The notes beneath the pieces are model-generated. The model was not told the DNA's origin, searched no databases, and saw nothing but the letters and a program-made list of their open reading frames with translations. From Mesotaenium endlicherianum (taxonomy: Eukaryota), in the NCBI GenBank assembly GCA_009602735.1, contig WELA01001243.1:124445-188444 (forward strand): a stretch of 64,000 nucleotides of DNA, given 5' to 3'. Both the position numbers and the translations under genes were made by a program. The stretch's first letter is position 1, and the number at the start of each line of letters is the position of its first letter. This document shows, one piece after another, positions 11,626 through 45,145 of this stretch.

Positions 11626-11738
11626 AGGCTGGTGAACCCTGCGGGTCGCACATCGCCGTCAACGGTGAAGGCCAGGAACGCCGCCGCATGCCAGGCAGCT
11701 GGCTCATTCTCATCGTGGCGGGCTACTGTGAGGTCCCT

Positions 11739-13910: not shown

Positions 13911-14029
13911 TGAACTGAATCGACTTACCAATAGGCGATTAATAATTAATAAAAGGTCTTTATATCAACAAGCAATCTTTATGGTATTTTTTGTTTACGG
14001 ATTTAGCAGCAAAAGACAACACGCTAGCA
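13911..14029 (-). mobile_element. Fragment of LTR family A (3' end, inverted)
   Basis: Reverse complement of the last ~120 bp of LTR A. Confidence 0.8.
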
Positions 14030-14037
14030 AGGGGTAA

Positions 14038-15043: not shown

Positions 15044-15045
15044 TT

Positions 15046-17649: not shown

Positions 17650-17654
17650 CGTAG

Positions 17655-19559: not shown

Positions 19560-20060
19560 CTAAATCACGGGCCGACCGTTGTCAAGCGCCATGAAGCCGT
19601 AGAGGGCGGACTCAGCTGAGCGACGATCCACGATGTCAAGCAGCACGGATGCCGTGCGGGTCCCCCCTGACTGCCAGTCAGGTCGGTAGAAGACCCGCTC
19701 CACCCAGTTATCCACTGCGACGCCGATAGGAAAGAGAATGTCCTGGCCAAGGAGCACGTCGAAGGTCTTAGAGCAAGTGACCAACGCGTGCCGGTGGATG
19801 GTCATCTCATCCGGAGTGCCGGGCCAAAAGGTGAAGCGAAGGGCCAGCCGCGTGCTCCCGGCTACGGTCTCGGACGTGCCGGCTCGCGATGTTGATCCGC
19901 GTCGGCAAATCCTCTAGGTTGGCTGAGAAGAGGCCCAGCTGGAGGAAGTAGCGGACACTGATGAGGACTGGCTGGGCGTCAGTGTTGAACATAATGGGCT
20001 GCGGGGCCTGCGTGTTAACCAGCACGATCCCCTGCAAATTATCAAAAAACGCAGCGTTAG
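19560..20060 (-). pseudogene. Decayed aspartic protease of the DNMT-Gypsy element
   Basis: PIMFNTDAQPVLIS corresponds to LVVIDTGAQPVLLG at ~43900; downstream FDVLLGQDIL...VDNW corresponds to YDLLLSRKF...VDSW. Confidence 0.75.
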
Positions 20061-21597: not shown

Positions 21598-23728
21598 TTA
21601 AGCCGGGCTGGGTACGCGTGCAAAGTGGCAGCGCGTGTGCGCAGCTGCTGACGTGCCTGTCGAGATGTGGTTGCGTGGTTGGCTGCAGAGCGAGCCTCGC
21701 AATGCGGCACGCGGCGTGAGCGGGTGTGCAGGTGTGCAACTGCCGTCGGACAAAGTCTTGCCAGCCGCGGACGCGACAGGTGGAGGCACCGGTTGGAATC
21801 TGCTGCTTGCAGCAGCCAGCAGGGTGCGATCGTTCGGAGACGATCGATTGGGGCGCAAATTTGCGCATGGGCGGACGTCTCGTAGGGCGAGGGGCGCTGC
21901 AGATGTAATAGCCGGCTGGCAGGCCCAACCTGTCGCGCCAGTTGTCACTCCGCAAGCTGCAAACAACTCTGCTGGCGTCAACAGGACAACGCAGGCCAGA
22001 GGAGCTGCGGGAGCCTGCGTTGGCTGCACTGGCGGGAGTGCCTGCCCGTCAAAAGGCGTGTCTGCGGCGAGGGATGGCGAGACCGCGCGGACTTGCGGCT
22101 TGCCATCTAGCAGCCTGTCAGGGAGGAAGCCATCGCTGCTGACGACTGTCAGTGCGACGTGCGCACAGCTGGCAGGAGCGTCTGCGCAGATGTCTGCGGT
22201 GCTAGATGCAAGAGCTCCGTCAAAGGGCGGGCCAGTGGTGGGCTGCATTGTCGCTGTGGCGCTAGGTGATAGCCTCTGAGGCTGCTCCGTGTCAGCGCTG
22301 TGAATGTGCGCAGAGGCTACGCGGACGCCAGCTGTCGGAGCTGGAGCGTTGGTCGGCGGGACGCGTGCAAGGAGGGCTCCGCACGCGTTGTAGCTATCGA
22401 TTGCAACTAGGTCAGGGAGTCTAGCGATCTCCGCGTTGGCCTCCACGAGGGCGTCGCTGACATCGTCAAAGCTGCAATAGTCGGCTCCGGGGGTCAGCGC
22501 GTCGTCCATGGTGGCCGTGGCTGCCGTCATCGAGGGGCGTCCACCCGTGCGAGGGTTACGCATGCCTCGCTGTCCTACTACTGACGGCGCGGGGCAATCA
22601 CAAGCGCGTCCGTTCTCGACGTCGCGCTTTCTTTGCAGGCATATGATCTGCAGGTGACCGACCTTGCCACAGTAGGTACAGTCGCCAGGCTTGCCATTCT
22701 GCGCGATTGTGCAGTTCTGGCGAGAGTGGCCCGTCTTCCCGCAAGACCAACAGGGGTCGCTCGTCGTGGCGGCCATGGAAATGCAGCCACGCGTAGCTCC
22801 GCGCTGCTGAGTTTGCTAGGGCAGCTGAGAGCGCTAAGACCAACAGGGGTCGCTCGTCGTGGCGGCCATGGAAATGCAGCCACGCGTAGCTCCGCGCTGC
22901 TGAGTTTGCTAGGGCAGCTGAGAGCGCTAAGACCAACAGGGGTCGCTCGTCGTGGCGGCCATGGAAATGCAGCCACGCGTAGCTCCGCGCTGCTGAGTTT
23001 GCTAGGGCAGCTGAGAGCGCTGGGGCTGTTGCTGCTACTGGGGCTGGCGAGCCGAAGCTGGGCGCATCGTGGAAGATGGCAGCACCAAGGACTCCTGACG
23101 TACGCCCGTATGCAAGGCCCACACGATTGCTATTGTTGCTTCGTGCGGCAGCCAAGCTCTGCTTCTCAACTGAGAGGTAAGCGTCCATCAGCGAGTACTC
23201 GGAGCCAATGTGATAGATGAGGGGGGAGGTGGCCCTCTCCCTCAATTGTGGCTCCACGGCACGCAAGAAGATCTCCGCTGCCTCCCGGTCGGTGAGGGTG
23301 CCAACGTCTCGGTGAAGGTGCGTCAAGCGGCGGTACATCATGCGGGTCATCTTATTTCTGCAGCTGTAGAAGTGGTGCAGCTCGTACACCTTCTCTTTGG
23401 TCGCGGCCTGGAACTCCTTCCTGAGGACGACCCAGAAGGCCTTGACCGGATCAGCGAGGAGGGTCTCCACTGGGGGTTCCCCCACAAGCTCTGTGCGTGC
23501 ATAGATCTTGTCACCCTTCTCGCGGAAGGTGTCACGGGCCTCGTAGAGGAGATAGCGCATGAGCGTATAGAACACGTCACGCTTAGTGAGCACGGGCGTT
23601 TTAAGCCTCGCAATCACGAACTCAGCCTCGAACTCTGAGATTGTGTCGTCCAGATCACAGGTTCCTGGTCTGCCGTTCAAGCGGAAGAGGGAGGACCTGT
23701 CAACCTTGAGCTCTTCGTCACCTGCCAT
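21598..23728 (-). pseudogene. gag of the DNMT-Gypsy element (frameshifted)
   Basis: Capsid-like ORF 23728-22598; two CCHC knuckles (CWSCGKTGHSRQNC, CTYCGKVGHLQIIC) in the neighbouring frame at ~22756-22637. Confidence 0.8.
22744..23021. repeat. Three apparently identical 93-bp tandem repeats in gag
   Basis: Units start at 22744, 22837 and 22930. Confidence 0.95.
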
Positions 23729-23957
23729 GGGATATCAGGAATCGTGGTGAGCCCACTGGAAAGTTGGCTCAGGGACAATCACAGGAGGTACGAGTGCTGG
23801 CTGCTCCCCTTCAGAGGGTTCAATGACAGTACTGAGATCGAAGTCTGAGTCTTCTCCACCAACCCCTTTGTAGTAAGGCTGGTAAGAAAGCCCACTACAG
23901 GTAGGCATATGCTGAAGATTCTAATTGCTTGCAGGCAAAGAGACATCTTTCTAGAAG

Positions 23958-24967: not shown

Positions 24968-26686
24968 CACATTTATAGACCTCAACATAATAGCTCAATC
25001 GACGCGTAAGAAGGTAAGAAAACGTACAATCAGTGAAGGCAACCTTGCAACACTTTGCAATCCGGTTCCGTGTGTCTCCTGCAAAGTTATGTGTATGTTT
25101 TACTCAACAGCTTCTATTTGCTCAATGTTCTCATATCTTGCGCAATTCTATCCACATATTCATGCAACCTGCACAAGCTTGCAACGCTATATCAAATGAT
25201 TTCCCTAACTTCATGTACTTCCACATATTCAGGTTTAATACGGCTATGGATGAGTACAGCGATGCATTCTTCAAGCCTCTTTCCGTCACCGACTTGCAAC
25301 AGGTGGGTTCCTTGTTCGCTTTACACCCATACTTCAGACTTTGCTGTGTGCTAATATGCTTTTTGGTACTTCTCTAAGTTTGTGTTTGTTGGCCTTTGGT
25401 GTCCTCACATTGCAGATCTTTTGTGGAATAGATGGTACCTTCCTGCCGGTCAATGCTGCTGTATTTAAACAGTATATTGGATAGATATAATATTCATTTA
25501 GATATAATAGTTATATAAGTTCAGCGCGCTGAACTTTAATTAATATTACTTCTGCTGGATAATTGATACTTAGTTAAATGACTCTGCCGGGAGCAGCAGG
25601 CTGAAGTCCATTAGATCAGCCTGTTGACTTGGATCAGCTTGCTGACACATTCTTCGACAGTCAGTTGGCTGCCGTACTTGGCAGCAGCGAACTGCTGTCG
25701 TGCCTAACAGTGTCGGTCCCTCGGCACGTGCGTGGCCTTTCAGCACGTGTGCCTTCGACCTGGTCGATGTGTCGGTGGCCCTCCTCACGTGCGGGCAAAC
25801 ATGGTCAATCGATCTTTGCAAGTGTGTCGGTGACAAGCCTTACCAGGGTTAACCCATCCCTGGGCTCCTGAACTTGCACCATGCAACCAAGACCAACTCT
25901 CGGGACTTTGTTCTACTTTACTCAGCCCTCACCATCTGCTTTATCTTAAGCCTTAGCAGAAAATTTGAAAATACTTGCCTTTGCCTTAATTTGTAATGAA
26001 TCAGTATATTAGTCGATATAAAATTCCTTTAAATATAATAGTTAATTAAGTGCAGCCTGCTGAACTTTAGTTAATAGTCAGTCTGCTGGACTTTACATAA
26101 TTATCAGTTTGCTGACTCAGTCGAAAGCAGCAGGCTGAAAGTCCATATAAGTCAGCTTGCTTCCGTACTCGGTAGCAGCGAATTGCCTTGATATGCATCT
26201 AAGTGCGATATGCTAGATGAATAGCCAGATGACATCCCTATGATGGATGGCTATTCGGGATGATGGGAGATGGCAGTGGATTTGGTTAACCGAGGTCCTA
26301 CCAACGTGGTTAACTCCCGGGTAGGCGGTGCCATCGCACTGACCGTTGAACAGTAAACTCATTCCATGTACATACGCTAGGCATTGCTCTCGAGTTCGGC
26401 ATTCGGAAACGAGGCCAACTCTCTTGTACAGCTTACTGAGAGAGATCTGAATCCAAGGCGAGAAGCCATTGATACGCACTGTCTTCTAACCTTGCTTATG
26501 TATGAGTTTACTGATTTGCATTATTGATGCTAGTTTACTCGCATTTGACTTACGAGTATTATTCACTGCTAGTGTGTTGTCCTTTGCCGTTTAACCAGTT
26601 AACGGAAAATACCATAAAGATTACTTGCTGATATAAAGATCTTTATTAATTGTTAATCGCCTATTTGGTAAGTCGATTCATTTCAG

Positions 26687-26698
26687 TGGTATCGGAGC
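26687..26698 (+). promoter_or_regulatory. Primer binding site, initiator tRNA-Met type
   Basis: TGGTATCGGAGC, 1 nt after the LTR; differs by one base from the usual plant iMet PBS TGGTATCAGAGC. Confidence 0.9.
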
Positions 26699-26719
26699 AG
26701 TTATCACAGGTATCTTTGT

Positions 26720-28199
26720 ATGGTAAGGACAAGGTCTCAAACTAGCAACTCCCGAGACATGGAGAACCAGGATAACGAGAATGTCAAAAACCAGGCGGAA
26801 AGCCATGTAGCGGGAACCCGTACCTATTCTGAAGCAGTGGCAGATACTGCAGCTAGGGAGGCTGCAGATGAGGCAGCTGCTATTGCCGCAGTCGCAGCAC
26901 AGCAAGCTGAGGAGGAGAGAGCCAGATTAGAAGCTGAACAATTAGCAAAGGCCGCTGAAGATACAGAAAGGAGGGAAGGACAGCCAGCTGACGAGCGCAC
27001 TGTTGAAGAACTTATGGCATCAAGGGCCAATGTTCTGAAACCACCTCCTGCCGTACAACTCAATGTACCCCTAGGCTAAATACGTGACCGGCTGAATGCG
27101 GCAGGAATTGCTGCTGCAGGAGCAAGAGGGATTGTTGAGGACACTACTCAGCGAGTAGATGCCAATGCTGCTGCTGCATTTGCTAATCTACCACCCCAGA
27201 GTGTAGACTTGGGAGCATTGTTCGTTCAGATGCAGTCGCAAATGGCGACCATGTATCAGTCCCAGCAGGAGGACAAAAGAATCATAATGTCCCTACTCCG
27301 GGACAGAGACCAACTGGGGTCTCACATCACTAGTGGTGGTGGCCGAGGGCCTAGTAAGCCCAAGCCAAAACCTCCCCAGGACTATGATCCTGAGGGAAAC
27401 AGGAAAATATTACCTGATCAAGTTTCTCGCGGATGTTGAGCAGTGGCTGGAGAACTACCCAGAACTGCAAGATTACGAGAAGGTCAGGCACACCGGTGCG
27501 CTACTGAAAGGCAGTGCCGCAGACTGGTGGCTTTACTGGAAGGAAGAGCGTAAGGCTCGGCAACTCGGTGACCCTACGTGGGTAGAGTTTGTCGAGAAGT
27601 TGCATGAGAAGTTTGATGTCATCAACCAGCAGGAGAAAGCTATCTATGCGATGATCTCCCTGACACTGAAGCAGACCACTTCAGTTGCTGAGTTTGCTCA
27701 AAAGTTCCAAGAGAACATGATGAAGCAGCCTGATTTGCCAGAACGGTATAGGATAGCATACTTCAGGTATGGCTTGAAATCCGAGGTCTCTGGTCATTTT
27801 GCTGAGAAAAAGTATGAGAAACTGGCTGACTTGATCCAGGATGCTGACGCCTGGGATCAGCAGCAGTTCAATCACAAGCGCCAGAGTAACGCTTTGGTGT
27901 CTAAGATTGTCAAAAAGCCCCACGGTTCCTACAATGCAGTTGAAGGAGACCAGGCTGAGGATAATCAGGGTGATGAATATGAGTATGAGTACAATGCTAT
28001 TCAGTCTAGAGGTAGAGGTGGTCCCTCTCGAGGTGGCTATGGAAGGGGTGGTGGTAGGACTAAGCCGAGACCAGCCTCAGCAAAATCTACTTGCTACCAT
28101 TGTCAGCAGAAAGGCCACTACAGAGAACAGTGTCCGGTCAAGCACCTGCCTAAGGTCGAGAGAAAAGACCAGCCTTTAAAAGACAGCAACAGTCAGTAA
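26720..28199 (+). pseudogene. gag of family A (one premature stop, one frameshift)
   Basis: TAA at 27077 (CAA in the copy at ~36884); frameshift near 27400; LKGSAADWW capsid motif; knuckle CYHCQQKGHYREQC. Confidence 0.9.
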
Positions 28200-28216
28200 T
28201 CCAGTCTACTGACTGT
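28175..28216 (+). promoter_or_regulatory. -1 programmed ribosomal frameshift signal (gag to pol)
   Basis: Slippery heptamer T TTA AAA at 28175-28181 in gag phase; 7-nt spacer; perfect 10-bp stem ACAGTCAGTA/TACTGACTGT; the -1 frame is open into pol. Confidence 0.85.
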
Positions 28217-28267
28217 GAGGATGCTAGAGATAGTGAGTCGTCACTAGCTGCCCTCGTAGCAGGTATT

Positions 28268-31200
28268 ATGGGTCCTGCTGAACTGGATTCACTATGCATG
28301 CCTGACAAACAGATAAAGGAGACCATCAGTAATATAGACGTCCAGAGAGTGCACACTCTGGATGCTCTTGTTCCACCTGATGTCCAACATTTCTTTGCTA
28401 CGTCAGGAGAACAATGCGAAAGTCAGGAAAAGACAGTCCCCCCTATCCTACTGCATTGCATGATTGCAGGTAGGAAGGTGAGGGCATTTGTTGACGGAGG
28501 GGCGTCACATACTTTTATTCACAAGGACTTAGTTAAGCGGCTAAGGCTGCCTACTGTCACCCAAGGGAATAGAAAAATATTCCTTGGAGATGCCTCAAGT
28601 ATCCCGGGAGGAGTTATAACCAAGCCTATTGAGGTCCAGTTAGGTTCTGGCATTGCAGTTCTAACTGAAACGCTTACATTTGAGGTACTCAACACTGGCT
28701 TTTATGATCTCGTGCTAGGCAGGTCCTGGCTTAATAGACATCAAGCTGAAGTGTGTTGGAGCAGAGGTACAGTTAAAGTGAGAGGAGCCAGTGATGGGCA
28801 GACTGACTTGGCACCCACCAGTGCTCTTCCTCTTGTCCTGTGTGGATGGCAAATGAAGGAAAAGAAGAGGCTTCCAGAAGGATGCAAGTTGCTGAATGCA
28901 ATGGAGTTCGTCAAAAGCTGGAACCAGAAGGAAGACAGAATGTTCTGTCTGCTGCTAAGAGAGGTACCTCCTCAACCTGAAGAAGTGGTTGAGAAAAAGG
29001 TAAGCCCTCCGGAGCACCCTACTGCTGCAAAAATTGTTGCTCAGTACACTGATGTGTTTAACATGCCTCCAGGACTACCCCCTAAAAGGGAAGTAGATCA
29101 TAGGATTGATCTATTACCTGGTAGCCAGCCACCCTGGCAACGCACTTATGGCTTGTCTTATTTGGAGAGCGAGGAGTTGAAAACACAGATTGCAGAGCTG
29201 GAGGAAAATGGTTACATTTCTCCCAGTAAATCACCGTACGGCGCACCTATCCTATTTGTTAAGAAAAAGGATGGCAGTATGCGGATGTGTGTGGATTACA
29301 GAGCCCTGAACAGAATTACAGTAAAGAACAAGTATGCTTTACCCAGAATCGAGGACTTGCTTGATACCCTGTCTGGCGCTAAGGTGTTCAGTAAGATAGA
29401 TCTCAAGAGTGGTTATCATCAAATCAGAATTGCTGAGGGGGATGAACACAAGACTGCTTTCCGCACACGTTATGGACACTATGAGTTCAACGTGATGCCA
29501 TTTGGACTGACTAATGCTCCTGCTACCTTTATGGGTGCTATGAATGACATTTTCAGACCTTATTTGGATAAGTTTGTGCAAGTTTTCCTGGATGATATTT
29601 TAATTTTCTCTAAAGATGAAGCTCAGCACACTGAACACTTAAAGAAAGTGCTGGACACTCTGCGGAAAAATCACTTGTATGCTAAAATGAGCAAGTGTGA
29701 TTTCTTTAAGGAAAGTATTGAATTCTTAGGCCACGTTGTCAGTAAAGAGGGCATCAGTGTGGATCCTAAGAAAGTCCAGACCATAAGGGACTGGCCAGTA
29801 CCACAGTCTGTCTCTGAAGTTAGATCCTTCCTCGGGTTGGCTAACTACTATAGGAGATTTATTGAGAATTATTCCACAAAGGCCAGTAAACTGACTGACC
29901 TTACTAAGAAAGACATCGGGTATGTGTGGGGGGAAGAGCAGCAGGCTGCCTTCCAGACCCTTAAAGATGCCCTTTGTTCTGCCCCAGTGCTAGCCGTGTA
30001 TGACCCCAGCAAACCGGTGCAGGTGGTTACTGATGCCTCTGATTTTGCCATGGGTGCTATTTTGTTGCAGCCTGCTGACAAAACCACAAAGGATGGTAAG
30101 GTACGGCAGGAGTGGCATCCTGTGTTGTATGAGTCTATGAAATTTAATCCAGCGGAGATTAATTACTCAGTGCATGATAAAGAGCTGCTAGCTATCATTC
30201 ATGTACTCAAACAGTGGAGAGCATACTTACATGGTAAAGCTTTTAAGGTGATTACAGATCATCTAGCTCTGACCCACTTTCAGAAGAAGTCCAAGCTGTC
30301 GAGGAGGGAGAACCGCTGGAGCCAGATGCTGGAGCAGTTCCAAGTCCAGATCGACTACAAACCAGGGAAGTTGAATCCTGCTGATGCACTCTCTAGAAGA
30401 CCTGACTTGCAAGAAAGGAACTTTAGTCAGCATGCTGTAGATAAAGTCCTGTGTGCACTCACTTCACTAAAGGTGAAAAAGTCCTTCCTTGAACAACTTA
30501 GGAAAGCCTACCTTTCTGACCCAACATTTGAGCCCAGCCCCACTACTGGTGTGTGTCGTGCTACTGCACTCGGGTATAAGCTCAAGGGAGGGGTCTGGGT
30601 GACTGAAACCACTTCAGGCAGGCTGAAGCTGGTCATTCCTAATAATTTGGAAATAAGGTCTCTCTTACTGAGTCAAGCTCATGACAGTCTCCTGGGTGGA
30701 CATTTGGGGCAGGCCAAAACTGTTGGCAAACTGGCAAAACATTATCATTGGGAGGGGTTACCCCGGGAGGTCTTGAAATATGTCAAGTCCTGTGACCAGT
30801 GTCAGAGAAATAAGTCTCGGCACACACCACCCGGAGGTCTCTTGCAACCGCTACCCATCCCAGCGGGACGCTGGGAAACTATATCCATGGACTGGGTGGT
30901 CTCACTACCAAGAACTGCCAACGGGCATGATTCAATACTGGTAGTCGTGGATAAACTGACAAAAATGGTCATTTTTATCCCCACAACTGTCAAAGTGACT
31001 GCACTCGAAACAGCGAGACAGTTTTACAACCATGTAGTATGCCAACATGGGCTCCCTTCTAATATCATCTCAGACAGAGACTCAAAATTCACCTCTAAGT
31101 TCTGGAGAGCTTTAATGGGGTTAATGGGAGTCAAACAGCTGCTCAGCACAGCAAACCACCCTCAGACTGATGGGCAGACTGAAAGAACTAACCGAGTTCT

Positions 31201-31984
31201 GCAGGAGGTGCTGAGAGCATATATTAACCAAAAACAAGATAATTGGGATGACCTGTTGCCTCAAATTCAGTTTGCGGTCAACAGTGCGGTGCACGCGTCA
31301 ACGGGCAAAACTCCTTTTGAACTCAGCCTGGGTAGAGTCCCTAAGTCTCCTCTAGATGTGCTAGGGGAATCTTTAACTCACCCTGAAGGGATTGACAACC
31401 CGGTCTCCCTCCAGTTAACTCAGGAGTTTGCTGACACCCTGTCAGAAGTCCAACGAAACTTGCACACGGCCCAAGAAAACCAACAAAAATACGCTAATCA
31501 ACACCGTCGGGAACTGACATTTTCCAAGGGGGATTTAGTCAAACTGCATTCTCAGCACCTGTACCTCCCTGGTGTGGTCAAGAAAAAGCTTGGCCCTGTC
31601 TGGGTCGGTCCATATTCGGTGGTCCGTCGTGTCGGTCAGAATGCTTACAAACTGAACATGTCAGCTGAATACAAGGGGCACCCGGTCTTTAATGTCTCCT
31701 TCCTGGAACCGTACATCAAAGGTGATACACTGTTCACAGGTCGGTTCCCTGTCCAACCGGGACCGGTCCCCGCTGTCCGGGACGGCGACCCTGAGGAATA
31801 TGAGGTCGATGAGATTTTAGACGCTCGCTCGGTCCGTCGATCGTCTAAATATGTCATGAAATACCTCATTCGATGGAAGGGTTACGATGCCTCTGGGGAC
31901 ACTTGGGAGTTTAAGGACCACTTGACCAATGCCAAAGGGGCGTTGACACGGTTCCACCTTCGGGCCGCTGGAGTCCCTCCATAA
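28268..31984 (+). CDS. pol polyprotein: protease, RT, RNase H, integrase, chromodomain
   Basis: [46 protein letters not shown]-terminal YEVDEILD...YLIRWKGY...DTWE chromodomain; uninterrupted 1238 aa. Confidence 0.97.
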
Positions 31985-32251
31985 CTGTCATTTCAGTTGA
32001 CACGGGAAGGTGACAGGCGGTCCTGTCTCCATTTAAGTTGGAGGGGAAAATATATGACAGTTAGTGAGCGAGAGCGATAAAAACACACTCATACGTTTAT
32101 GTGTAGCGCATCGCAACTACGTCAACTTTTAGCAATCATCCTGTAAGGTAAACAGCAGCGAAGCCACTATACTAAATACTAACATACTTCCTGCAATCCC
32201 TATGACAAAGGTCCATATCCTACTAACTTGTGCCCTGGTTACATGTGCAGG

Positions 32252-33928
32252 ATGGCGCCCACCACACAAAAGGAGGACAGAAAGCGCAAGGCAGAAGAAG
32301 CCAGGAGGACAATGGAGCAATACCAGAAGGAGCTGGCGGCGACGTCCCTCACCAGGAGAGAACAAGAAAGGGTCCGCAAACAACAAGAGGCGGCAGAAGA
32401 GGCACAGAGGAAGAAGGATCAGGAAGCGGAAAACCTCAGGAAGGCTGAGGAGGAGAGACAGAAGAAACAGCAAGAAGAAGCGGCAGCGGCAGAAGAGGAG
32501 AAAAGAAAAAAGATTGAAGCGGACAGACAGAAGAGCTTGGCCACTTACAGGTATACTGTGGTGGGTGGCCAAAACTTCGATAACCTGAAGGAAGCATTGC
32601 TGGCAGCCCAGGAGATCAACAGGCTGGAACAGACAACACTGCTACAGAAGGAAGGAGCTACAGCACTGGACAGGTACATCGAGACACACACCGGCGTGGT
32701 CCTTTACGAAGATTATGCTAAGATGGTGGGCTATACAGCAGAGCAGGCCCGGTATCTCGCAGATGATTCAGAGGACAAGCCGGTCCCCATACCGGGAATA
32801 GTGGGAGATCAGAGACTCATCCGGATGGTGAGCATGCGGCCCGATAGCTTTACGGATACGGTATTCTACCTCACACTCTTGCCAGCTTACAATGAAGTTG
32901 AGAGAAGGAGCTGGGAGTACTTGGCCAGGGAAGCAGGACAGCAGATGTTCTCTCCCCACTGGTTCCCGTGTAAACTGAGGAAGGCTGAGCACGGACCCCA
33001 GTACTACCAGCAGCCAACAGACTGGAGGTGGATGACCGTCACAAATAAGAAGCAGGAGTGTGACCGAGCCCAACCGGATGACTTCCACTATGGCCTAGAC
33101 GGCTATCTCATCCTACCACCTCACATTGCCCCTTGGGACCCCAGGCTGAATGGATGCCTGAGCAATATGAATGCAGAGACCAAGGAACATAGGAGGAGGG
33201 GAAGAGACTACTTCTCTAAGGGAAAGCATGCCTTTGTCAAATGGGCAAAGAATGCAGGCCGGATAGATATCAGTAGGCTGAAGGCCAAGCAACCTCCAGC
33301 GCGCCCTAAGAAAGGGAGGTCGGTAGACTACTCCATGTCTACTAGGGAGCAGGACGACTTAGTGGACGAGACCCCTACTCTCTCCGAGGAGGAGGATGAG
33401 GAGGATGAGGAAGAAGAACAAGGCAGAGGAGAAGCATCAGCAGCAGGTACTCAGGATACCCAGGGACAGGCAGTGGCACTTCCTAAAGAACCACGATCAG
33501 GTGTGTGGAATGTGATCCCCGTTATGGCGACAACTGGACCCCGCGCTCGCTCCCCCAGCCCACCTGCCCAAGCAGGGGAAGAAGCTGATCTGACTGTACT
33601 GGGCAGCAGACACAGACAGAAATCCCCAGAGGACAGGGGTGCCAGAAGAGGGACACGCGGGTGGGCCAGAGGTATGCCAGCCTCCCCCTCCGCTCAGGGG
33701 CATGTACCTCTAGCCAATGTATTTCAGCATCCTACTTGAATGCCTGTCTATGTGGGAATCAACACCCAAGTGGTTGAAGAGCAGGCCACCATCCTCCGTT
33801 CTCCTCGAGGGCCAACTTTAGAGCAAACAGGGTTCTTTAGAAGGCCAGCTGACAGACCTAGAGGGCTGTCCAGATCTAGGTCCAGATCTCCGTCTCCTGA
33901 CCCTGAAGCCCCAGGAACAACCCCTTGA
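32252..33928 (+). CDS. Accessory ORF3 of family A, unknown function (in-frame TGA at 33737-33739 probably premature)
   Basis: ATG at 32252 directly after a CAG|G acceptor; charged coiled-coil-like N-terminus, aromatic-rich middle, acidic run, SRSRSRSPSP tail. The homologue at 41059-41601 reads through the stop position (QHPSVMPVYV vs QHPT*MPVYV). Confidence 0.8.
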
Positions 33929-36900
33929 GGTGACACGCTGACGAGACAGTCAGTAAGGGAGGCTGGTCAGGTTCAGTTCCCTTATTTAAAATTTCTGCAG
34001 TTTAATGTTGTCGAGGCGACAACAAGTTAAGTTGGAGAGATTGTAATGAATCAGTATATTAGTCGATATAATATTCATTTGAAAATAATAGTTAATTAAG
34101 TTCAGCCTGCTGAACTTTAGTTAATAGTCAGTCTGCTGGACTTTACATAATTATCTAAGTTTGCTGACTCAGTCGAAAGCAGCAGGCTGAAAGTCCATAT
34201 AAGTCAGCTTGCTTCCGTACTCGGTAGCTGCGAATTGCCTTGATATGCATCTAAGTGCGATATGCTAGATGAATAGCCAGATGACATCCCTATGATGGAT
34301 GGCTATTCGGGATGATGGGAGATGGCAGTGGATTTGGTTAACCGAGGTCCTACCAACGTGGTTAACTCCCGGGTAGGCGGTGCCATCGCACTGACCGTTG
34401 AACAGTAAACTCATTCCATGTACATACGCTAGGCATTGCTCTCGAGTTCGGCATTCGGAAACGAGGCCAACTCTCTTGTACAGCTTACTGAGAGAACTCT
34501 GAATCCAAGGCGAGAAGCCATTGATACGCACTGTCTTCCAACCTTGCTTATGTATGAGTTTACTGATTTGCATCATTGATGCTAGTTTACTCGCATTTGA
34601 CTTACGAGTATTATTCCCTGCTAGTGTATTGTCCTTTGCCGTTTAACTAGTTAACGGAAATACCATAAGATTACTTGCTGATATAAAGATCTTTATTAAT
34701 TATTAATCGCCTATTTGGTAAGTCGATTCATTTCATAATTCCTCTTACAAGGACGGAAGTCTCTTACTTCCACATAGGCTTTATGCCTTAAAGTTCTTGG
34801 GTTCACAGCCGAGCAAATTGTAGTTTGCAGAAATCACACTCTAAGCAGCTTGACATACAACGTCAGGTTCAGAGAAAATTGCCCTTCAGGTTTTCGCTTA
34901 ACTTTCACAAGTCACAGCTTACAAAACTCTGAAACTGCACGTCTATGCTGGCGTGGGTCAAGCTCTTCACTTAACCTCGTGCCTTAACAGCTCTTCACTG
35001 CCAGGCTGGGCTCACTCAGTTCTTCACTGAAAGCTTTATCTGTCAATACTACTCTCTCTCTTCGAGATGCGAATGCGACTTCTGAGAACCTGGAAACTAA
35101 CACACAACTCACCATTTTAAGGCTGCTTCACACACACTTGTGGCGTTCGACCGAATCTGTGCTAATCTCCTAGCAGATTCTATTCTGCAGTTCTCCTGTT
35201 GTCAACAGTGAGATTCCCTCTTGGGAACTCCTACAATCCTAACTTATCTACGATACACTGAGAAGAATCTTCAGCGTCGGCAGAAGCGTGGGGCCTCGGC
35301 CCTCCAATGGCCTTGGGAACTCCTTCTTCTTCGCGCCCTTCTTCTCCTTCCTTTTAATTCTTCTGCTTCTTGGCAAAAGTGCGTGAGAGTGAATGACATT
35401 TCTCAGGCAAGGTTCGTGCCTTTCGCAAGCACCACACAGCGTCATCCTTCGAGAATGCCGTGCTTAGTGACAAAGCTTAGCTGCATGTCGCTTCTGCCTA
35501 GCCATGCTCAACTCAAACTCGTAGTCACTTAGCATGCATGCACACCTCGTGACTGTCGCGCGTGGCTGCTTAGCTTCTCAGCTAGCAGTCACGCCTAATT
35601 GGCTCGTGGCTAAGAACTCCTGCACGGTGTGTACAAGCAGATTCCACTTGCTCAAGATTCCCACTCGGGCGGCCGTAATCTATCTTGGCATTGCGGCCAT
35701 GACCTAGCTTCATCTGCCAGTCACACAGTACTGGACTTGGTACCTGCTGGGCGGCTCATCTCTGATCCCCAGCTTCTAGTCTCACGGCTGTCTATGTTGT
35801 CAAAACCTCCTCCATTCTTGGGTGTGGGGCACATTGACATTGACCCTTTGCCAGTGGTCTCGATGCTGACATAACCGCTGACTGCGACGAAATCAGTCAA
35901 GTGGTCGGTGAGTCAACGTTGACTTTCCGTACCTGGGTGGCCGTAGCTTGCGCTGCGCGTGCGGCACCGTCAAACGGATAGTCGTCGCGACACTGCTGAG
36001 TCATGCATTTAAGTGTGGTGTGCTATATGAGTGGCCAGATGACACCCTTAAGGTGGATGGCGATTTGGGATGATGGGAGATGGTTGTGGTTGGTTAGCCA
36101 AGGTCCTACCAACGTGGTTAACTCTCAGGTAGGCGGTGCCATCGCACTTGCCGTTGAACAGTACACTCATTCCATGTACATATGCTAGGTATTGCTCTCG
36201 AGTTCAACATTCGGAAACGAGGCCAAGTCACTTGTACAGCTTACAGAGAGAGATCTGAATCGAAGGCGAGAAGCCATTGATATGCACTGTCTTCTAGCCT
36301 TGCTTATGTATGAGTTTACTAATTGCAATATTGATGCTAGTTTATCTGCATTTGACTTGCGAGTATTGTCTACTGCTAGTGTGTTGTCTTTCGCTGTTTA
36401 ATCAACAAACTGAAAATACCATAAAGATTACTTGCTGATATAAAGATCTTCATTAATTGTTAATCGCCTATTTGGTAAGTCCATTCATTTCAGTGGTATC
36501 GGAGCTGTTATCACAGTCTTCCTTGTATGGTAAGGACAAGGTCTCAAATTAGCAACTCCTGAAACATGGAGAACCAGGATAATAAGAATGTCGAAAATCA
36601 GGCTGAAAGCTATGTAGCGGGAACCCGCACCTATTTTGAGGCAGTGGCAGATACTGCAGCTAGAGAGGCTGCAGATGAGGCAGCTGTTATTGCTGCAGTC
36701 ACAGCACTGCAGGCTGAGGAGGAAAGAGTTGGACTGGAAGCCGAACGATTAGCAAAAGCTGCTGAAGATACAAAACGAAGGGAAGGACAGCCAGCGGACG
36801 AGCGCACTGTCGAAGAACGTATGGCAGCAAGGGCCAATGTTCTGAACCCACCTCCTGCAGTACAACTCAATGTGCCTCTAGGTCAAATTTGTGACCTGCT

Positions 36901-39900
36901 GAATGCGGCAAGAATTGCTGTTGCAGGGGCGAGAGAGACTGTTGAGGTCACTACTCAGCGGGTGGATGCAACTGCTGTTGCTGCATTTGCTAGACTCCCA
37001 CGTCAGAATGTAAATTTAGGAGCATTATTTGTGCAAATGCAATCGCAAATGGCGAGCATGTATTAGTCCCAACAGGAGGACAAAAGAATCATAATGTCTC
37101 TGCTGCGGGACAGAGACCAACTGGGTTCACAAACCACTGGTGGTGGTGGCAAAGGGCCTAGTAAGCCTAAGCCAAAACCTCCCCAGGACTATGATCATGA
37201 GGGAAACAAAAAGTATTACCTGATCAAGTTTCTCGCTGATGTTGAGCAGTGGCTGGAGAACTAGCCAGAATTGCAAGATTACGAGAAGGTCAGGCACACC
37301 GGTGCGCTACTGAAAGGCAGTGCCGCGGACTGGTGGCTTTACTGGAAAGGCGAGCATAAGGCTCGGCAACTCGGTGACCCTACGTGGGTAGAGTTTGTCG
37401 AGAAGTTGCATGAGAAGTTTGATGTCATCAACCAGCAGGAGAAAGCTATCTATGCGATGATCTCCCTGACACTGAAGCAGACCACTTCAGTTGCTGAGTT
37501 TGCTCAAAAGTTCCAAGAGAACATGATGAAGCAGCCACATTTGCCAGAACGGTATAGGATAGCATACTTCAGGTATGGCTTGAAATCCGAGACCAACTGG
37601 GTTCGCAAACCACTGGTGGTGGTGGCAAAGGGCCTAGTAAGCCTAAGCCAAAACCTCCCCAGGACTATGATCATGAGGGAAACAAAAAGTATTACCTGAT
37701 CAAGTTTCTTGCTGATGTTGAGTAGTGGCTGGAGAACTACCCAAAATTGCAAGATTACGAGAAGGTCTAGCACACTGGTGCTCTACTGAAAGGCAGTGCA
37801 GCAAACTGGTGGCTGTATTGGATAGGAGAGCGTAAGGCTCAGCAACTCGGTGACCCTACTTGGGTAGAGTTTGTCGAGAAACTGCATGAGAAGTTTGATG
37901 TGATCAATTAGCAGGAGAAAGCTATCTATGCAATGATCTCCTTAACACAAAAGCAGACCACTTCAGTTGCTGAGTTTGCTCAAAAGTTCGAGGAGAATAT
38001 GATGAAGCAGCCAAATTTGCCAGAGCAGTATAGGATAGCATACTTCAGGTATGGCTTGAAATTCGAAGTCTCAGGTCATTTTGCTGAAAAGAAATATAAG
38101 AAACTGGCTGACTTGATCCAAGACGCTGATGCCTGGAATCAGCAGCACTTCAATCACAAGCGCTAGGGTAATGCTTTGGTGTCTAACCTTTATGGGTGCT
38201 ATGAATGACATTTTCAAACCTTACTTGGATAAGTTTGTGCAAGTATTCTTTGATGATAGTTTAATTTTCTTTGAAAATGAAGCTGAGCAATGTGAGCACT
38301 TAAAGACACTCGTGGACACTCTGAGAAGGAATCAGTTATATGCTAAAATGAGCAAGTGTGATTCCTTTAAGGAAAGTATTGAATTCTTGGACCACGTTGT
38401 CAGTAAGGAAGGCATCAGTGTGGATCTTACGAAAGTCCAGACCATAAGGGACTGGCCAGTACCACAATCTGTCTCGAAAGTTAGATCCTTCCTTGGATTG
38501 GCTAACTACTATAGGAGATTCATTGAGAATTATTCTACAAAGGCCAGTAAACTGACTGACCTTACTAAGGACATAGGGTATGTGTGGGAGGAAGAGCAGA
38601 AAGCTGCCTTCCAGACCCTTAAAGATGCTCTCTTTTCTGCCCCAATCTTAGCTGTGTATGACCCCAGTAAACATGTGCAGGTGGTTACTGATGCTTCTGA
38701 CTTTGCCATGGGTGCTATTTTATTACAGCCTGCTGACAAAACCACAAAGGATGGGAAGGTAAACCAGGAGTGGCACCCTGTGGTGTATGAGTCTATTAAA
38801 TTCAATCCAGCTAAAATTAACTATTCCGTGCATGATAAAGAGCTGCTTGCTATCATTCATGTGCTCAAACAGTGGAGAGCATACTTACATGGTAAGGCTT
38901 TTAAGGTGATTACAGATTATCTAGCTCTGACTCACTTCCTGAAGAAGTCTAAGCTGTCCAGGAGGGAAAATCTCTGGAGCCAAATGCTGGAGCAATTTCA
39001 AGTCCAGATTGACTACAAACCAGGGAAGTTGAATCCTGCTGATGCACTCTCTAGACAATCTGACCTGCAAGAAAGGAACTTTAGTCAGCATGCTGTAGAT
39101 AAAGTCCTTCGTGCACTCACTTCACTAAAGGTGAAAATGTCCTTCCTTGAACAACTTAGCCTACCTTTCTGACCCAACATTTGAGCCCAGCCCCACTGGT
39201 GGTGTGTGTCCTGCTATTGCACTCGGGTATAGGCTAAAGGGAGGGGTCTGGGGTAACTGAAACCACTTCACGCAGGCTGGAGCTGGTCATTCCTAATAAC
39301 TTGGAAATAAGGTCACTCTTGCTGAGTCAAGCACATGACAGTTTACTGGGTGGGCATTTAGGGCAGGCCAAAATTGTTGGCAAACTTGCAAAACATGATC
39401 ATTGGGATGAAATACCTCGAGAGGTCTTGAAATATGTGGTCAGTGTCAAAAAAATAAGTCTAGGCACATACCACCCGGGGGGCTATTATAACCACTACCC
39501 ATCCCAGCTGGACGCTGGAAAACAATATCCATGGACTGGGTGGTAATATTTCCTGGAACTGCCAATGGGCATGATTCGATACTGGTAGTAGTGGATAAAC
39601 TGACAAAAATGGTCATTTTCATCCCCACCACTGTCAAAGTAACTACAGTCGAAACTACGAGACAGTTATACAATCATGTAGTATGCCAACATGGGCTACT
39701 CTCTAATAATATCTCAGACAGAGACTCATAATTTACCTCTAAGTTCTGGAGAGCTTTAATGGGGTTAATGGGAGTCAAACAGCTGCTCAGCACAATAAAC
39801 CTCCCTCAGACGGATGGGCAGATTGAAAAAACCAACCGAATTTTGCAACAACTAATGAGAGCATATATTAACCAAAAACAGGATAATAAAGATGCCCTGT

Positions 39901-42533
39901 TGCCTCACATTCAATTTGCGATCAACAGCGCGGTGCATGCGTCAACGGGAAAGCCTCCTTTTGAACTTACTCTGGATAGAGTCCCCAAGTCCCCTTTAGA
40001 TATACTAGGGGAGTCTTTAACTCACCCTGAGGAGATTGACAATCCGGTGTCGCTCCTGTTAACTCAGGAGTTTGTTGACACCCTATTAGAAGTCCAACAC
40101 AATCTGCACAAAGCCCAAAAAAATCAACAAAATTACGCTATTCAACACCGTCAGAAGCTGACATTTTCAAAGGGCAATTTGGTCAAACTGCATTCTCAAC
40201 ACCTGTACCTGCCTGGTGTGGTCAAGAAAAAGCTTGGTCCGGTCTGGGTCGGTCCATATATGGTGGTGCGCCGTGTCGGTCAAAATGCTTACAAACTGAA
40301 CATGTCAGCTAAATACAAGGGTCACCCAATCTTTAATGTCTCCTTTCTGGAACCATACATCAAAGGTGACACACTGTTCACAGGTCGGTTACCTGTCTAT
40401 TAGGACCGGTCCCCGCTGTTCGAGAAGGTGACCCTGAGAAATATGAGGTTGATGAGATTTTAGAAGCTCGCTCTGTCTATCGATCATCTAAATATGTCAT
40501 GAAAAATTTGGTCAGATGGAAGGATTACAATGCCTCTGGGGACACCTGGAAATTTTAGGACCATTTGACCAATGCCGAAGGGGCGTTGTAACGATTTTAC
40601 CTTTGGGAGGCTGGGACACCTCTCTAATTGTCATTTCAGGTGACATGGGAAGGTGACAGGAGATCTTGTCTTCATTTAAGTTGGAGGGGAAATGTGGCCA
40701 AACGTGGCCTAAAGTGACAGTTAGTGACGGAAAGTGACAGTATTTGACAGGGAGTGACAGTTGTGACGGGCAACCCAGTGACAGCTGAAACGGGCAACCC
40801 ACCTCAAACATTAAGTTGGAGGGAGTGGGATAAATATCTCAAAAACTAGCCGATTATCGATTGCCGTTGCATATTCATCCGTGACACTCAATTGCGCTCA
40901 CACTCACTTCTCTCTCTAGGAACACTTGCCCTTTCAATTCACTTACACCAGGTATTGCATGTCCTAACTCCCTCTACTACGTTCTTCCCTGTCAAAGTAC
41001 TCAATCCTGTGCATGATATCATGACTACACTAACCCCATTGTGGTATGAACGAGCAGGATGACTCAATTGTTTGAACTCAAGAGAAAAAGAAGGGCGGAC
41101 GAGGCACAAGCGGAGTACAAGGAATTCCATGTCGACATCAAACCATCCTCCATCTCTTCTCCAAAATCAGAGCGACTCCAACTACAGCGGAAGGCTCAGA
41201 AGAGGAAGGAGGAGGAGGAACAGGCCAGGTTGAGACAGGAAGAGCAGAACAAAAAAGCTGCAGAGAAAGCCAAGAAGGCGGAGGAACAAAGGTTTGCTGA
41301 GGAGAGGCAGAAGCAGCAGGTTGAGGAGGAACATAGGAGAATCAAAATCTACTGCTACACGGTGATGGGCAAGGGCTTTGACAAAGCTGACAGAAGGGCT
41401 GCCAAGGAGGCAGCCAGAGGGCAACCAGCATCTCCCTCTCATAAAGGGCATGTACCATTAGCTCATGTCATGCAGCACCCCTCCGTTATGCCAGTGTATG
41501 TCCTTGCCAGTTTGAGAGCTGCACAAGAGAGAGCGGTCTCCATCAACTTGCAGACAATGCAAGAGCAGGCTGCCCAGTTGCTGCGTTCACTCCTCGGTTG
41601 ACCCTGGTCTAAGCCTCCAGGTTTCAGGAGACTATCAGATAGGAGAAGCAGATCCGGTTCCAGGTCTCGCTCCCCAGAAGACCGAGCCCCTGGTACTTAG
41701 TTTGCTGTTGTCTTTGTTTTAAGTTCAGTTGATTGTGTTGCATGTGTGTTACTTGGCAGTAAATAATATAGAAGTGTTGTCTAGTCGACAACAATTTAAG
41801 TTGGAGGGATTGTAATGAGTCAATATATTGGATAGGTATAATATTCATTTAGATATGATAGTTAAATAACTTCAACCTGCTCAACTTTAGTTAATATTAA
41901 TTGTGCAGGATAATTGATACTTAGTTAAATGACTCAGCCGAGAGTAGCAGGCTGAAGTCCATTAGGTCAGCCTGTTGACTTGGGTCAGCTTGCTGCCACA
42001 TTCTTTGACAATCAGCTGGCTGCCGTACTCGGCAGCAGCAAACTGCCTAGCTATGCATCTAAGTGTGGTCTGCTAGATGAGTGGCCAAATGACACCCTTA
42101 AGGTGGATGGCGATTCGAGATGAAGGAAGATGGTTGTGGATTTGGTTAGCCGAGGTCCTACCAACGTGGTTAACTTCCGGGTAGGCGGTGCCATCGCACT
42201 TGCCGTTGAACAGTAAACTCATTTCATGTACATATGCTAGGTGTTGGTCTCGAGTCCAGCATTCGAATACGAGGCCAACTCCCTATTGAGATATATTTGA
42301 ATCCAAGGCGAGAAGCCATTGATACGCACTGTCTTCTAGCCTTGCTTATGTATGAGTTTACGGATTGCATTATTGATGCTCGTTTACTTGCATTTGACCT
42401 GCGAGTATTGTCCACCGCTAGTCTGTTTGTCTTTGCTGTTTAATCAGATAACAGTAAATACCATAAAGATTACTTGCTGATATACAAATCTTCATTAATT
42501 GTTAATGGCCTGTTGGAAAGTTGATTCATTTCA

Positions 42534-43990
42534 ACCATGCCAGGACCCCACAAGCCGTCTGACTGAGGTCAAAAGGCATAGGAGGAAGGTTGGCTAACAA
42601 AGGTAGGGAAAGCACGGCGTGGCTAAGTGGGGAGGTTTAGCGAGCATTGGGAAGGGTGATTGGGTAAAAGACAGGCATAGGAAGGAGGTGGGAGGGAAGA
42701 ATAGTAGTGACCAGCTGACGGTGGGGCCAGCTGTGGACGGCCAGGGCGGCAGCGTGAAGATCGGGTTGAGGTGCGAGGTTGGTCCAGTAGATGCGGGAGC
42801 AGGGGGCGTAGGCCCCAACAGCGGTAGCGTCAAGGAGAACGCCAGGGCCGAGGATGGCAGTGATGTAGGCGAAGTCAGCACGGACATTGGCGCGGCGGTC
42901 GTCTCCAGAGGGGACGTTGTCAAGCAAATATGCAGGAGAAGGTAAAGGACCGACCTGGAGCACCTGGAGAATGCCAATGAGCTCATGGAAGAGACGAGAG
43001 CGAGGATCAGCAAGGCCAAGGCCGTGGCTGGCCTGAGAGTGCCCTTGGCACTTCCAGTCGGCCACGACCAAATCAATGTGCCCTAAGGGCAGAAGGTTGT
43101 CGGGGTCGAGCAGGCGAATGTCTTGGGGTAGGGCGGCATGAACGGAGGCATAAGCAGTGGACGAGAGGAGGGTGGGGAAGTGTGTAGTGAGCAAGCGGAG
43201 ATGGTGATAGCTAGCAGCGCGTGCAGTAGGGTCCTGATCACAGTAAAAGTAGCGGTGAATAGGGATGTTGTTATGCAACAATGCAGCGATTGGTGTGGAG
43301 AGGCCTGCGAAGAGGTTGAGCACAACGAGGCCTTGAGGAGGGACTGTGAGTGGGTGGAGAGTGATGTCAAGGGTGCTTGGAAGAGATGATGGGGGAGGGG
43401 GGAGAGGGGGCAAAAGGGCAGGGTAGGCCAAGGCATATTCAGCTTGGGTGTGTGCGGCGCGCAGATGGGTGGATGGTTCATAGATGGCGACGCATGCATG
43501 GACATAGGTGACTGAAGTAGCAGTCTGGGCTGATGTGGCTGCAGAAGGTGTGAGAGTAAGGTGCATAGGCAGGTAACCGACATGTTGGCCCACGCCATGC
43601 AATTTGACTCGGTAGTGTGCTTGCTGAGTCCACGAGTCAACGGTGAGGCCTAAGGGCAAATTAAACTTCCGACTTAGTAAAAGATCGTAAGAGGTTGCAT
43701 CAGTGATGACACACTGGGCGAACAAGGTGACAGCGTCCTGGGCGCCAGGGTTAAAAAAAGATGGCCAGGCGACGTTTAGTGAGGTGCACTGGTTGGGTAG
43801 AACTTTTGAGCGCAGTGGCCATGTGCAAGTCACTATTGATCATGTCTGCGCCAGTAAGCCCCAGTAACTGGCAAAGGCGCGCCGAGCAAAACGGGCTGGG
43901 CGCCGGTGTCAATGACGACCAGGCCAGGGGCGACGCCGCTGACTGTGACCACAGCACGGGTGTTATCTACACGTGCATTCGACGGACGGA
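42534..43990 (-). pseudogene. Second, divergent protease plus C5 DNA methyltransferase fragment of a Gypsy-type pol
   Basis: LVVIDTGAQPVLLG protease; motif I VVLNLFAGL; IV HIDLVVADWKCQGHS; VI YLLDNV; VIII LDATAVGAYAPCSRIYWTNL; RRAFPTFVS; truncated by LTR A at 42533. Confidence 0.88.
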
Positions 43991-44034
43991 GTTGAAAACA
44001 AGAACAGCGAGTACTGGGCCGAGCAAGGGGACGC

Positions 44035-45074
44035 GGCTGAGAGCTGCAGAGGAGAGGGCTATCTCCATCAACTTGCAGACTGTGCAAGAGGAGGCTACCT
44101 AATTGCTACGTTCTCCTCTCGGTTCACCTTGGTTTGAACCCCCAAGTTTCAGGAGACCACCAGGTAGGAGAAGAAGGTCCAGGTTCAGGTCCCGCTCCCC
44201 AGAGGATAGAGCCCCTGGTACTTAGTATGCTGATTGTCCTTGTTTAGAGTCAGTATGCTCTAATGTGCATGTTTTTTACTTTGTTGCAGTCAAATAGTTA
44301 ACAGGTGTTGTTTAGTTGACAACAATTGAAGTTGGAGGAATTGTTATGAATCAGTATATTGGATAGATATAATATTTATTTAAACATAATAAATAAATAA
44401 ATTCAGCCTGCTGAACTTTAGTTAATATTGAGTCTGCTGGATTTTTAATACTTCATTCAGTGACTGAGCTGGGAGAAGCAGGCTGAAATCAATTAGGTCA
44501 GCCTGTTGACTTAGGTCAGCTTGCTGACACATTCTTTGACAGTCAGCTGACTGCCGTACTTGGTAGCAGCGAACTGCCTAGTTATGCATCTAAGTGTGGT
44601 GTGCTAGATGAGTGGCCAAATGACACCCTTAAGGTGGATGGCGATTCAGGATGATGGGAGATGGCTGTGGATTTGGTTAGCCGAGGTCCCACCGACGAGG
44701 TTAACTCCCGGGTAGGTGGTGCCATCACACTTGCCGATGAACGGTAAACTCATTCCATGTACATATGCTAGGTATTGCTCTCGAGTTCGGCATTCGGAAA
44801 CGAGGCCAACTCTCTTGTACCGCTTACTGAGAGATATCTAAATTCAAGGCGAGAAGCCATCGATGCAAACTGTCTTCTAACCTTGCTTATGTATGAGTTT
44901 ACTGATTGCATGATTGATGCTCGTTTACTTGCATTTGACTTATGAGTGTTATATACTGCTAGTGTATTGTCTTTTGCTGTTAAATCAATTAACAAAAATT
45001 ACCATAAGAATTACTTGATGAATAAAGATCTATTATTAATTGTCAATCGCCTATTGGTAAGTCAATTCGATTCA
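44035..45074 (+). mobile_element. 3' end of another family A element (ORF3 tail, purine tract, LTR 44342-45074)
   Basis: 44035-44341 parallels 41510-41810; followed by an LTR A copy. Confidence 0.85.
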
Positions 45075-45145
45075 CCAACCGACCCACAATACATGTCAAC
45101 ACATGGATGGGTATTTTTGCACGTGCCCACCTTAGGGCCCAAAAT

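Follow-up and report, generated by a model that had tools for sequence, protein, structure and literature searches.

The window analysed here, a stretch of 64,000 nucleotides from Mesotaenium endlicherianum (contig WELA01001243.1), harbours an 8.7-kb LTR retrotransposon (25992-34735) that carries a third gene, ORF3, behind gag and pol. Unless stated otherwise, all features described below lie on the plus strand. The element is flanked by two identical 5-bp target-site duplications (25987-25991 and 34736-34740; no strand assigned) and bounded by a 5′ LTR with TG...CA ends (25992-26685) that shares 97.4% identity with the 3′ LTR (34042-34735), the pair being separated by 14 substitutions (seven transitions and seven transversions) and five gap columns over 692 aligned columns. 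Adjoining the end of the 5′ LTR is a primer-binding site (26687-26698), which presumably pairs with the initiator tRNA-Met. Next comes gag (26720-28199), encoding a Ty3 capsid (Pfam Ty3_capsid, E 5.8e-10) and a CCHC knuckle; it is broken by a stop codon (27077-27079) and by a frameshift near 27402, the latter being absent from the reads and the contig that cover the site. The open frame of pol (28154-31984) overlaps the end of gag in the -1 frame and encodes protease, reverse transcriptase (RT), RNase H, integrase, an SH3 domain and a chromodomain, as assigned by Pfam. Within the gag/pol overlap (28170-28180) there is a T-TTA-AAA heptamer resembling a slippery site, an arrangement that, with pol in the -1 frame, is ordinary for the class.

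Because it combines a Ty3-type gag with a pol containing protease, RT, RNase H, integrase and chromodomain, the element is a chromovirus. By the small divergence of its LTRs, it is a young one. The domain order PR-RT-RH-IN, together with the TG...CA LTR ends, the primer-binding site, the polypurine tract (PPT) and the 5-bp target duplication, places it among the Ty3/gypsy (Metaviridae) chromoviruses. The chromodomain at the C-terminus of the integrase (PF00385, E 2.1e-08, residues 1216-1268) possesses aromatic Y, W and Y residues, which we take to occupy the aromatic cage positions. For the integrase region, the best named relatives are Closterium and Haematococcus proteins with 37-52% identity, and the best identity of the RT-integrase core in protein collections is about 50%. 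None of the 120 pol relatives examined carries an ORF3-like extension; two metagenome loci show similarity to pol, both of them short and only distantly related. As a separate observation, eight reads from X13, an unstranded RNA run, jump over 289 nt at the end of the integrase (31459-31747), with ends that are non-canonical for an intron on either strand.

ORF3 (32252-33928) reads in the sense orientation from an ATG at 32252 to a terminal stop at 33926-33928, between the end of pol (31984) and the LTR-proximal PPT (34029-34039). A previous sequence-only reading had described it as a sense ORF of ~560 codons; its location, strand and 558-codon span are correct, but the frame is not open throughout, since an in-frame stop at codon 496 (33737-33739) had been overlooked. 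This stop leaves 495 residues plus a 62-residue tail. At its first base, the window differs from all of the contig depth listed for runs X4, X1 and X5 and from two of two reads in run X17; at the terminal stop, by contrast, every DNA contig listed retains a stop codon. Given that the contigs and reads listed in all four runs differ at this position, the premature stop is private to the window copy (or to the assembly), and the family gene therefore comprises about 558 codons, in line with the earlier count.

The predicted protein can be divided into several parts. Composition, charge pattern and copy comparison delimit an N-terminus (32252-32533) in which an RKRK cluster at residues 10-13, a predicted nuclear localisation signal (NLS), accompanies a charged helix. 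It is followed by a Trp/Tyr-rich middle domain (32534-33301) with six W and 15 Y in residues 95-350, and by a region (33302-33664) whose basic patch, acidic run and SP/RG-rich linker make it likely disordered by composition. Then come a C-terminal block (33665-33754), whose conservation is apparent from the codon comparison with a second copy, and an RS/SP tail (33854-33925). The basic NLS-like clusters RKRK and RPKKGR (the latter as PKKGR at residue 352), the aromatic middle, the acidic run and the tail had all been noticed before and are indeed present. The coiled-coil-like region proposed at that time did not hold up: the N-terminal 90 residues are rich in E/K/R/A/Q and contain a total of five L/V/I, i.e. 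too few hydrophobic residues for a canonical coiled coil, which was ruled out. Instead, opposite-charge pairs outnumber like-charge pairs by 26 to 6 at i+3 and by 25 to 4 at i+4. Opposite charges at these two spacings are the pattern of a charged single alpha helix, and the N-terminus looks more like such a helix than like a coiled coil.

As stated earlier, ORF3 has no signal peptide or transmembrane segment, the highest 19-residue Kyte-Doolittle mean being 0.75. Position and orientation are all that the gene has in common with one for an env-like membrane protein; the missing hydrophobic segment, joined by a count of three cysteines and a basic N-terminus, sets it apart from the env-like members of the sense 3′ extra ORFs and makes an envelope function extremely unlikely, so that this candidate was rejected.

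Two further copies of ORF3 are present in the window. Copy 2 (41059-41700) belongs to an older, decayed sibling element; its N-terminal helix is fused in frame to the C-terminal block, the entire Trp/Tyr-rich domain is missing without disturbing the frame, and a stop is found at 41599-41601. Copy 3 (44037-44225), located before a PPT and an LTR, consists of the tail only and has one internal stop. The homologous parts had been placed at 41059-41700 and 44035-44225 by the sequence-only reading. They are real, as 0 of 1000 shuffles reached either the N-terminal score of 135 (shuffled maximum 102) or the C-terminal score of 208 (shuffled maximum 59), yet the second starts at 44037 and is restricted to the tail, and the first is devoid of the middle domain. 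Preserved between copies are the N-terminal RKRK (copies 1 and 2), a short Y-x-Y-T-V motif, the C-terminal block and the RS/SP tail, whose RSRS..SP is kept in three of three window copies. Over 29 codons of the C-terminal block, copies 1 and 2 agree in 10, differ by synonymous changes only in 13 and encode a changed residue in six. At the DNA level, the two copies are 88% similar over pol, and this similarity ends at 32049: ORF3 diverges much faster than pol. Because copy 2 does without it, the middle domain may be dispensable. The copy 2 element also shows a 476-nt tandem duplication in gag (37210-38190), and its protease and most of its RT are missing.

Selection on codons argues that ORF3 is a genuine gene. 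Variants were scored among the best-supported 40 of 222 differences, a choice that favours shared, older changes; three differences upstream of the ATG and three at or beside the premature stop were left out. Among the remaining 34, 25 are synonymous (one of them stop to stop) and nine change a residue (one of them removing the start codon), compared with an expected synonymous share of 17-33% according to the kind of change. The listed variants are distributed 3/7/24 over the three codon positions, and eight of the 10 listed variants in the middle domain are synonymous (16-33% expected). The corresponding pN/pS values are 0.11 overall and 0.07 for the middle domain. Comparison of the window copies gives a pN/pS of 0.20 in the C-terminal block (30 codons), whose synonymous sites approach saturation (pS 0.72), and of 0.32 in the tail (copy 3 vs copy 2); as a control, 120 pol codons of the decayed copy 2 give 0.27. 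The earlier reading would have been abandoned had dN/dS been near 1; variants and window copies instead yield pN/pS of about 0.1-0.3.

Further information comes from run X5, in which variants of the middle domain are 10-17% diverged, marking this domain as a family feature. One diverged contig of this run has a 12-nt length difference in the linker that stays in frame, and two compensated pairs of indels likewise keep the frame. Against an intact frame stand one X5 contig without the start codon and one contig of depth 2 with an uncompensated one-base gap. Additionally, a depth-3 X5 contig skips 1473 nt of ORF3 (32234-33706) with ends that read GT..AG on the minus strand; it is weakly supported and may represent a deleted copy. 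Overall, ORF3 is present across copies—the three in the window and the diverged X5 variants—and its protein is conserved (pN/pS 0.07-0.32). ORF3 is thus under purifying selection, a chance ORF is ruled out by the selection on its codons, and we consider it almost certain that it is a real protein-coding accessory gene.

Searches for relatives of the middle domain returned none. By shared words, 5.8 billion proteins gave two sets of candidates, 3300 with 272-867 aa and 1510 with 140-448 aa, none of which matched; longer fused forms would exceed these length ranges. Likewise, there were no matches among 1.84 billion protein representatives at E 0.001, in the PDB at E 10, among 63 metagenome contigs with pattern matches or among five viral contigs. 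Pfam and PHROGs gave sub-threshold similarities only (Obc1_C, E 0.0015-0.007, 17.9 bits with a cut-off of 27), and the best Atlas score of 0.86 was within the chance range. ORF3 also did not match the Pfam accessory families VANC/plant mobile domain, Transposase_28 or Athila ORF1 up to E 10, no CERV or Rev match was among the results from the PDB, Pfam and the protein collections, and Rfam found nothing over 25900-45100. A single-sequence AlphaFold model of ORF3 reached a pLDDT of 32.8, too low for a usable fold. Judged by the libraries searched, the middle domain therefore appears to be an orphan, a label that may mean unsampled as much as unique: the absence of relatives is partly explained by the family's own pol being unsampled in the collections, where the nearest proteins are about 50% identical.

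These data also bear on the notion that ORF3 is a functionless passenger, derived from a host gene that was captured or from part of a nested element. An intron-like stretch upstream of the ORF and a second PPT module, both described below, are what a captured or recombined cassette might have, and all three window copies are damaged. On the other hand, purifying selection across copies whose synonymous sites are nearly saturated largely refutes this idea, and neither a cellular nor a transposable-element relative was found among the 1.84 billion representatives or elsewhere in the window, so that we regard it as improbable. A match to an ordinary host gene had been named at the outset as a finding that would overturn the accessory-protein reading; the protein collections searched contained no cellular gene match. 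The description of ORF3 as an accessory protein rather than an envelope protein is hence borne out by the missing membrane segment, by pN/pS values of about 0.1-0.3 and by the lack of a host-gene match.

How such a gene might have arisen is suggested by the DNA on either side of it. The PPT expected downstream of ORF3 is in place, but a second PPT-like module (32035) directly behind pol had escaped notice, meaning that the ORF lies between two of them. The pol-proximal module, PPT1 (32009-32049), consists of a hairpin (-11.9 kcal/mol) and, behind it, a 9-mer identical to the start of the LTR-proximal PPT; the LTR-proximal module, PPT2 (34012-34041), has a hairpin of -9.2 kcal/mol. The same hairpin-PPT module precedes the LTRs at 41811 and 44342. 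The 9-mer is found at six places in the window and never on the minus strand. Each of the two copies has one following pol, the spacer of copy 2 contains one more, and three LTRs are each preceded by one. In five of these six cases, a hairpin with an energy between -7 and -12 kcal/mol comes first. At 40813, copy 2 shows a further PPT-like site. PPT1 itself is 90.6% preserved in copy 2, and the DNA behind it does not align. In sibling copies from runs X1, X13 and X16, the sequence behind PPT1 (from 32046) is different again and continues with two letters and then TG, just as an LTR does behind its PPT. The second chromovirus family of the window (53325-58915, minus strand), which has no third ORF, shows a hairpin-PPT at the end of pol, directly before the LTR.

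The simplest reading of this arrangement is that PPT1 is the ancestral module and that ORF3 occupies former LTR sequence or a cassette inserted there. Since a hairpin-PPT stands both after pol and before the LTR, ORF3 probably lies in former LTR territory. Precedents for genes in such a place are HIV nef and MMTV sag, which are located inside U3. Like them, ORF3 is found behind a PPT, where an LTR begins; unlike them, it is not part of today's LTR and is present as a single copy in each element, and its LTR origin is deduced from the duplicated module. In the open-licence literature searched on Zygnematophyceae chromoviruses, third ORFs of streptophyte algae and LTR ORFs with PPTs, neither this family nor a doubled PPT flanking an extra ORF is described.

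Between PPT1 and ORF3, a 103-nt intron is predicted in the 5′ UTR (32148-32250), with an AG|GTA donor, a CTAAC branch point and a CAG acceptor one base before the ATG. Copy 2 has the same arrangement in a predicted intron of 106 nt (40952-41057), and these intron-like stretches precede both ORF3 starts even though the spacer DNA of the two copies does not align. The predicted introns contain two (103 nt) and four (106 nt) upstream ATGs. The acceptor pattern, which was picked after the sites had been seen, occurs twice in the window, both times at the ORF starts, with 0.20 occurrences expected and one of 100 shuffles reaching this count; a looser intron pattern has 11 matches in the window, and only the two ORF3 sites are then followed by G-ATG. 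Based on these signals, the 5′ UTR of ORF3 is probably spliced. Another pyrimidine-rich AG precedes the predicted donor in each copy, at a distance of 16 nt in copy 1 (within 32115-32147) and of 31 nt in copy 2 (within 40900-40951), so that a tiny non-coding exon joined to an LTR-driven first exon is possible. A candidate splice donor just before the start of gag (26710) was rejected, as neither copy 2 nor the reads preserve it.

RNA data were available from four runs that had been chosen by species label and may stem from another strain; 6-24% of each was sampled. Sense reads from ORF3 family members are few, with one run yielding none and two little: run X10 had 0 ORF3 reads, X16 reached about twofold sense depth at the 5′ end of ORF3, and the unstranded X13 covered the 3′ part at 7-13-fold depth, to which a rearranged copy contributed. 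In run X17, sense depth rose to 18.6 at 32444-32507; its sense reads begin in the bin containing the ATG, with none in the three bins upstream, and some carry family variants and no other difference. No splice joint at the predicted intron was present among the reads of the four runs, at a coverage too low to decide the matter. Over the 3′ end of pol (30828-32046), the reads in two stranded runs are mostly antisense, reach depths of up to 11 and 14 and derive from diverged siblings; in X16 and the unstranded X13, reads over the pol end continue into unlike sequence behind PPT1. The antisense reads suggest that a promoter in the spacer may fire back into pol.

Extra genes have been described in many elements of this kind. 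The earlier statement that gag and pol are typically the sole genes of a chromovirus is too broad: it is valid for most clades, but Additional file 5 of PMC6317226 gives sense 3′ extra ORFs for 18% of 782 Tekay chromoviruses; it has none for Chlamyvir (44 elements), Tcn1, Galadriel, Reina and CRM, and its Athila row looks shifted. That survey counts 3372 Ty3/gypsy elements with extra ORFs, falling into 314 groups (PMC6317226), a figure legend in PMC2864245 labels an ‘add. ORF’ in fungal and spikemoss Gypsy elements, and sense as well as antisense extra ORFs, with function unknown, are reviewed in PMC7264820. By position, ORF3 is a sense 3′ extra ORF (aORF-3S or eORF-3′F), and it resembles the published ones, as described, in its orientation, its length of more than 250 codons, its fast evolution and the lack of a known domain. 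Its likely splicing has a parallel in the spliced expression reported for Bagy2 (PMC7264820). It differs from the env-like among them, the missing transmembrane segment setting it apart, and from the Tekay sense 3′ ORFs in that the nearest named pol relatives of its element are algal and that a PPT module is found on each side of it. An extra gene at this place is hence no novelty in itself; as far as sequence comparison tells, the ORF3 protein itself is new, and so are the conserved intron signals and the doubled PPT module.

The closest functional parallel may be CERV of the Caenorhabditis elegans element Cer1. As described in PMC10309623, the spliced mRNA for CERV includes an ORF in the env position; the protein carries a candidate NLS (KRKK), depends on phosphorylation at an S-P site and must be present for the genomic RNA to be exported. 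According to that description, ORF3 shares with CERV a non-env ORF in the env position, a length of about 520-560 residues, a helical N-terminal part and a lineage-restricted distribution, as well as a KRKK-like signal and S-P sites, with the difference that splicing is reported for the CERV message and predicted for ORF3. CERV additionally has exons in common with gag, a cysteine finger and a leucine zipper, none of which is evident in ORF3. Other extra ORFs, namely the Tekay 5′ aORF (PMC11728184) and Grande gene23 (PMC7264820), likewise encode proteins predicted or shown to be nuclear with long helices and disorder, the nuclear site of ORF3 being a prediction; the former lies 5′ of gag and the latter is antisense with a promoter of its own, as opposed to the sense position of ORF3 3′ of pol.

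A plausible ‘nuclear regulator’ is indicated by the basic N-terminal cluster in both copies that retain this part and by the RS tail in all three. Together with the Y-x-Y-T-V motif and the C-terminal block, these features fit a nuclear protein that contacts RNA-processing factors, and the ORF3 protein is likely nuclear. What it would do there is argued from composition and analogy only, RS repeats and basic clusters being found in many disordered proteins. Tentatively, and with somewhat less than an even chance of being right, we favour a soluble orphan nuclear protein that controls splicing or nuclear export of the RNA made by its own element, much as Rev or CERV does. The message for ORF3 would be spliced, its last intron ending one base ahead of the ATG, and would be driven either by the LTR or by a spacer promoter. 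The protein would be directed to the nucleus and its RNA-processing machinery by RKRK and the RS tail, and there the middle domain could recognise the element's RNA and promote nuclear exit of unspliced gag-pol RNA, in which the same splice signals lie. A short message made from its own promoter would weaken this Rev-like logic.

The same protein might act on DNA instead, as a sequence-specific anti-silencing factor or transactivator that binds short repeated motifs of the element and keeps it transcribed, akin to VANC of VANDAL, which is treated as an anti-silencing accessory factor in PMC13547354 and PMC11728184. A likely nuclear site, the acidic run and the fast-evolving middle domain would suit this role, and TGACA/TGTCA words cluster just upstream of ORF3, with nine in 300 nt in copy 2 and six in copy 1, the two densest places in a window that averages 0.9; several of them, however, are part of the PPT hairpin itself. 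CpG depletion of the transposable-element frames in the window (observed/expected 0.40-0.45) suggests methylation. Yet Pfam has no match to the plant mobile domain or to any DNA-binding family, and the RS tail, the best-kept feature, points to RNA and not to DNA, leaving anti-silencing a possible but rather unlikely role.

Similarly unlikely, and slightly more so, is a role later in the life cycle, be it as a suppressor of RNA silencing, as a nucleic-acid chaperone or as a helper of nuclear import or integration, such as has been proposed for other extra ORFs (PMC7264820, PMC11728184). The basic, RG- and RS-rich regions would bind nucleic acid, and the antisense reads over the pol end could form double-stranded RNA; at the same time, no dsRNA-binding or other known domain was matched, and no link to particles or integrase was found.

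With RNA export as the preferred function, the origin of the gene can be added to a composite proposal. The gene would have arisen behind the original PPT, in the former start of the LTR, and the LTR boundary would later have shifted behind it. ORF3 would then be a Rev-like RNA export factor with a new fold, born inside the LTR of a green-algal-type chromovirus: plus-strand priming would have moved 2 kb downstream, the old LTR would have become a third internal gene with an intron, and the old PPT would have been kept as an internal priming site. That all of these steps apply at once is doubtful. The function of extra ORFs in LTR retrotransposons of the plant lineage is an open question (PMC7264820, PMC6317226), for which ORF3 offers a clean, testable case with a young element, a selected soluble orphan domain, a predicted intron with exact ends, natural long and short forms, and publicly available RNA runs. 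The duplicated hairpin-PPT module provides a concrete route for third-gene origin via a shift of the LTR boundary, and if ORF3 controls RNA export or silencing, regulation like that of complex retroviruses would extend to algal-type chromoviruses. As it stands, ORF3 is one more orphan in a known class.

Finally, the remainder of the window contains host genes and older retroelement remains. An MFS transporter gene with long GC-rich introns is located at 400-2760 (minus strand) and a pyrophosphatase-like exon at 60660-61500 (plus strand). Taken with the nearest named pol relatives, these genes suggest a green alga, probably a streptophyte, as host. Decayed, GC-rich retroelement pieces occupy 10100-23750 and 42640-43839 on the minus strand and comprise CCHC, RT, RNase H and integrase fragments on the same strand. 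They include a C-5 cytosine methyltransferase domain at 16210-17694 (E 7.2e-10) and at 42640-43839 (E 7e-4), and in this respect resemble the Dnmt-bearing Gypsy elements described for Klebsormidium nitens (PMC5890265).
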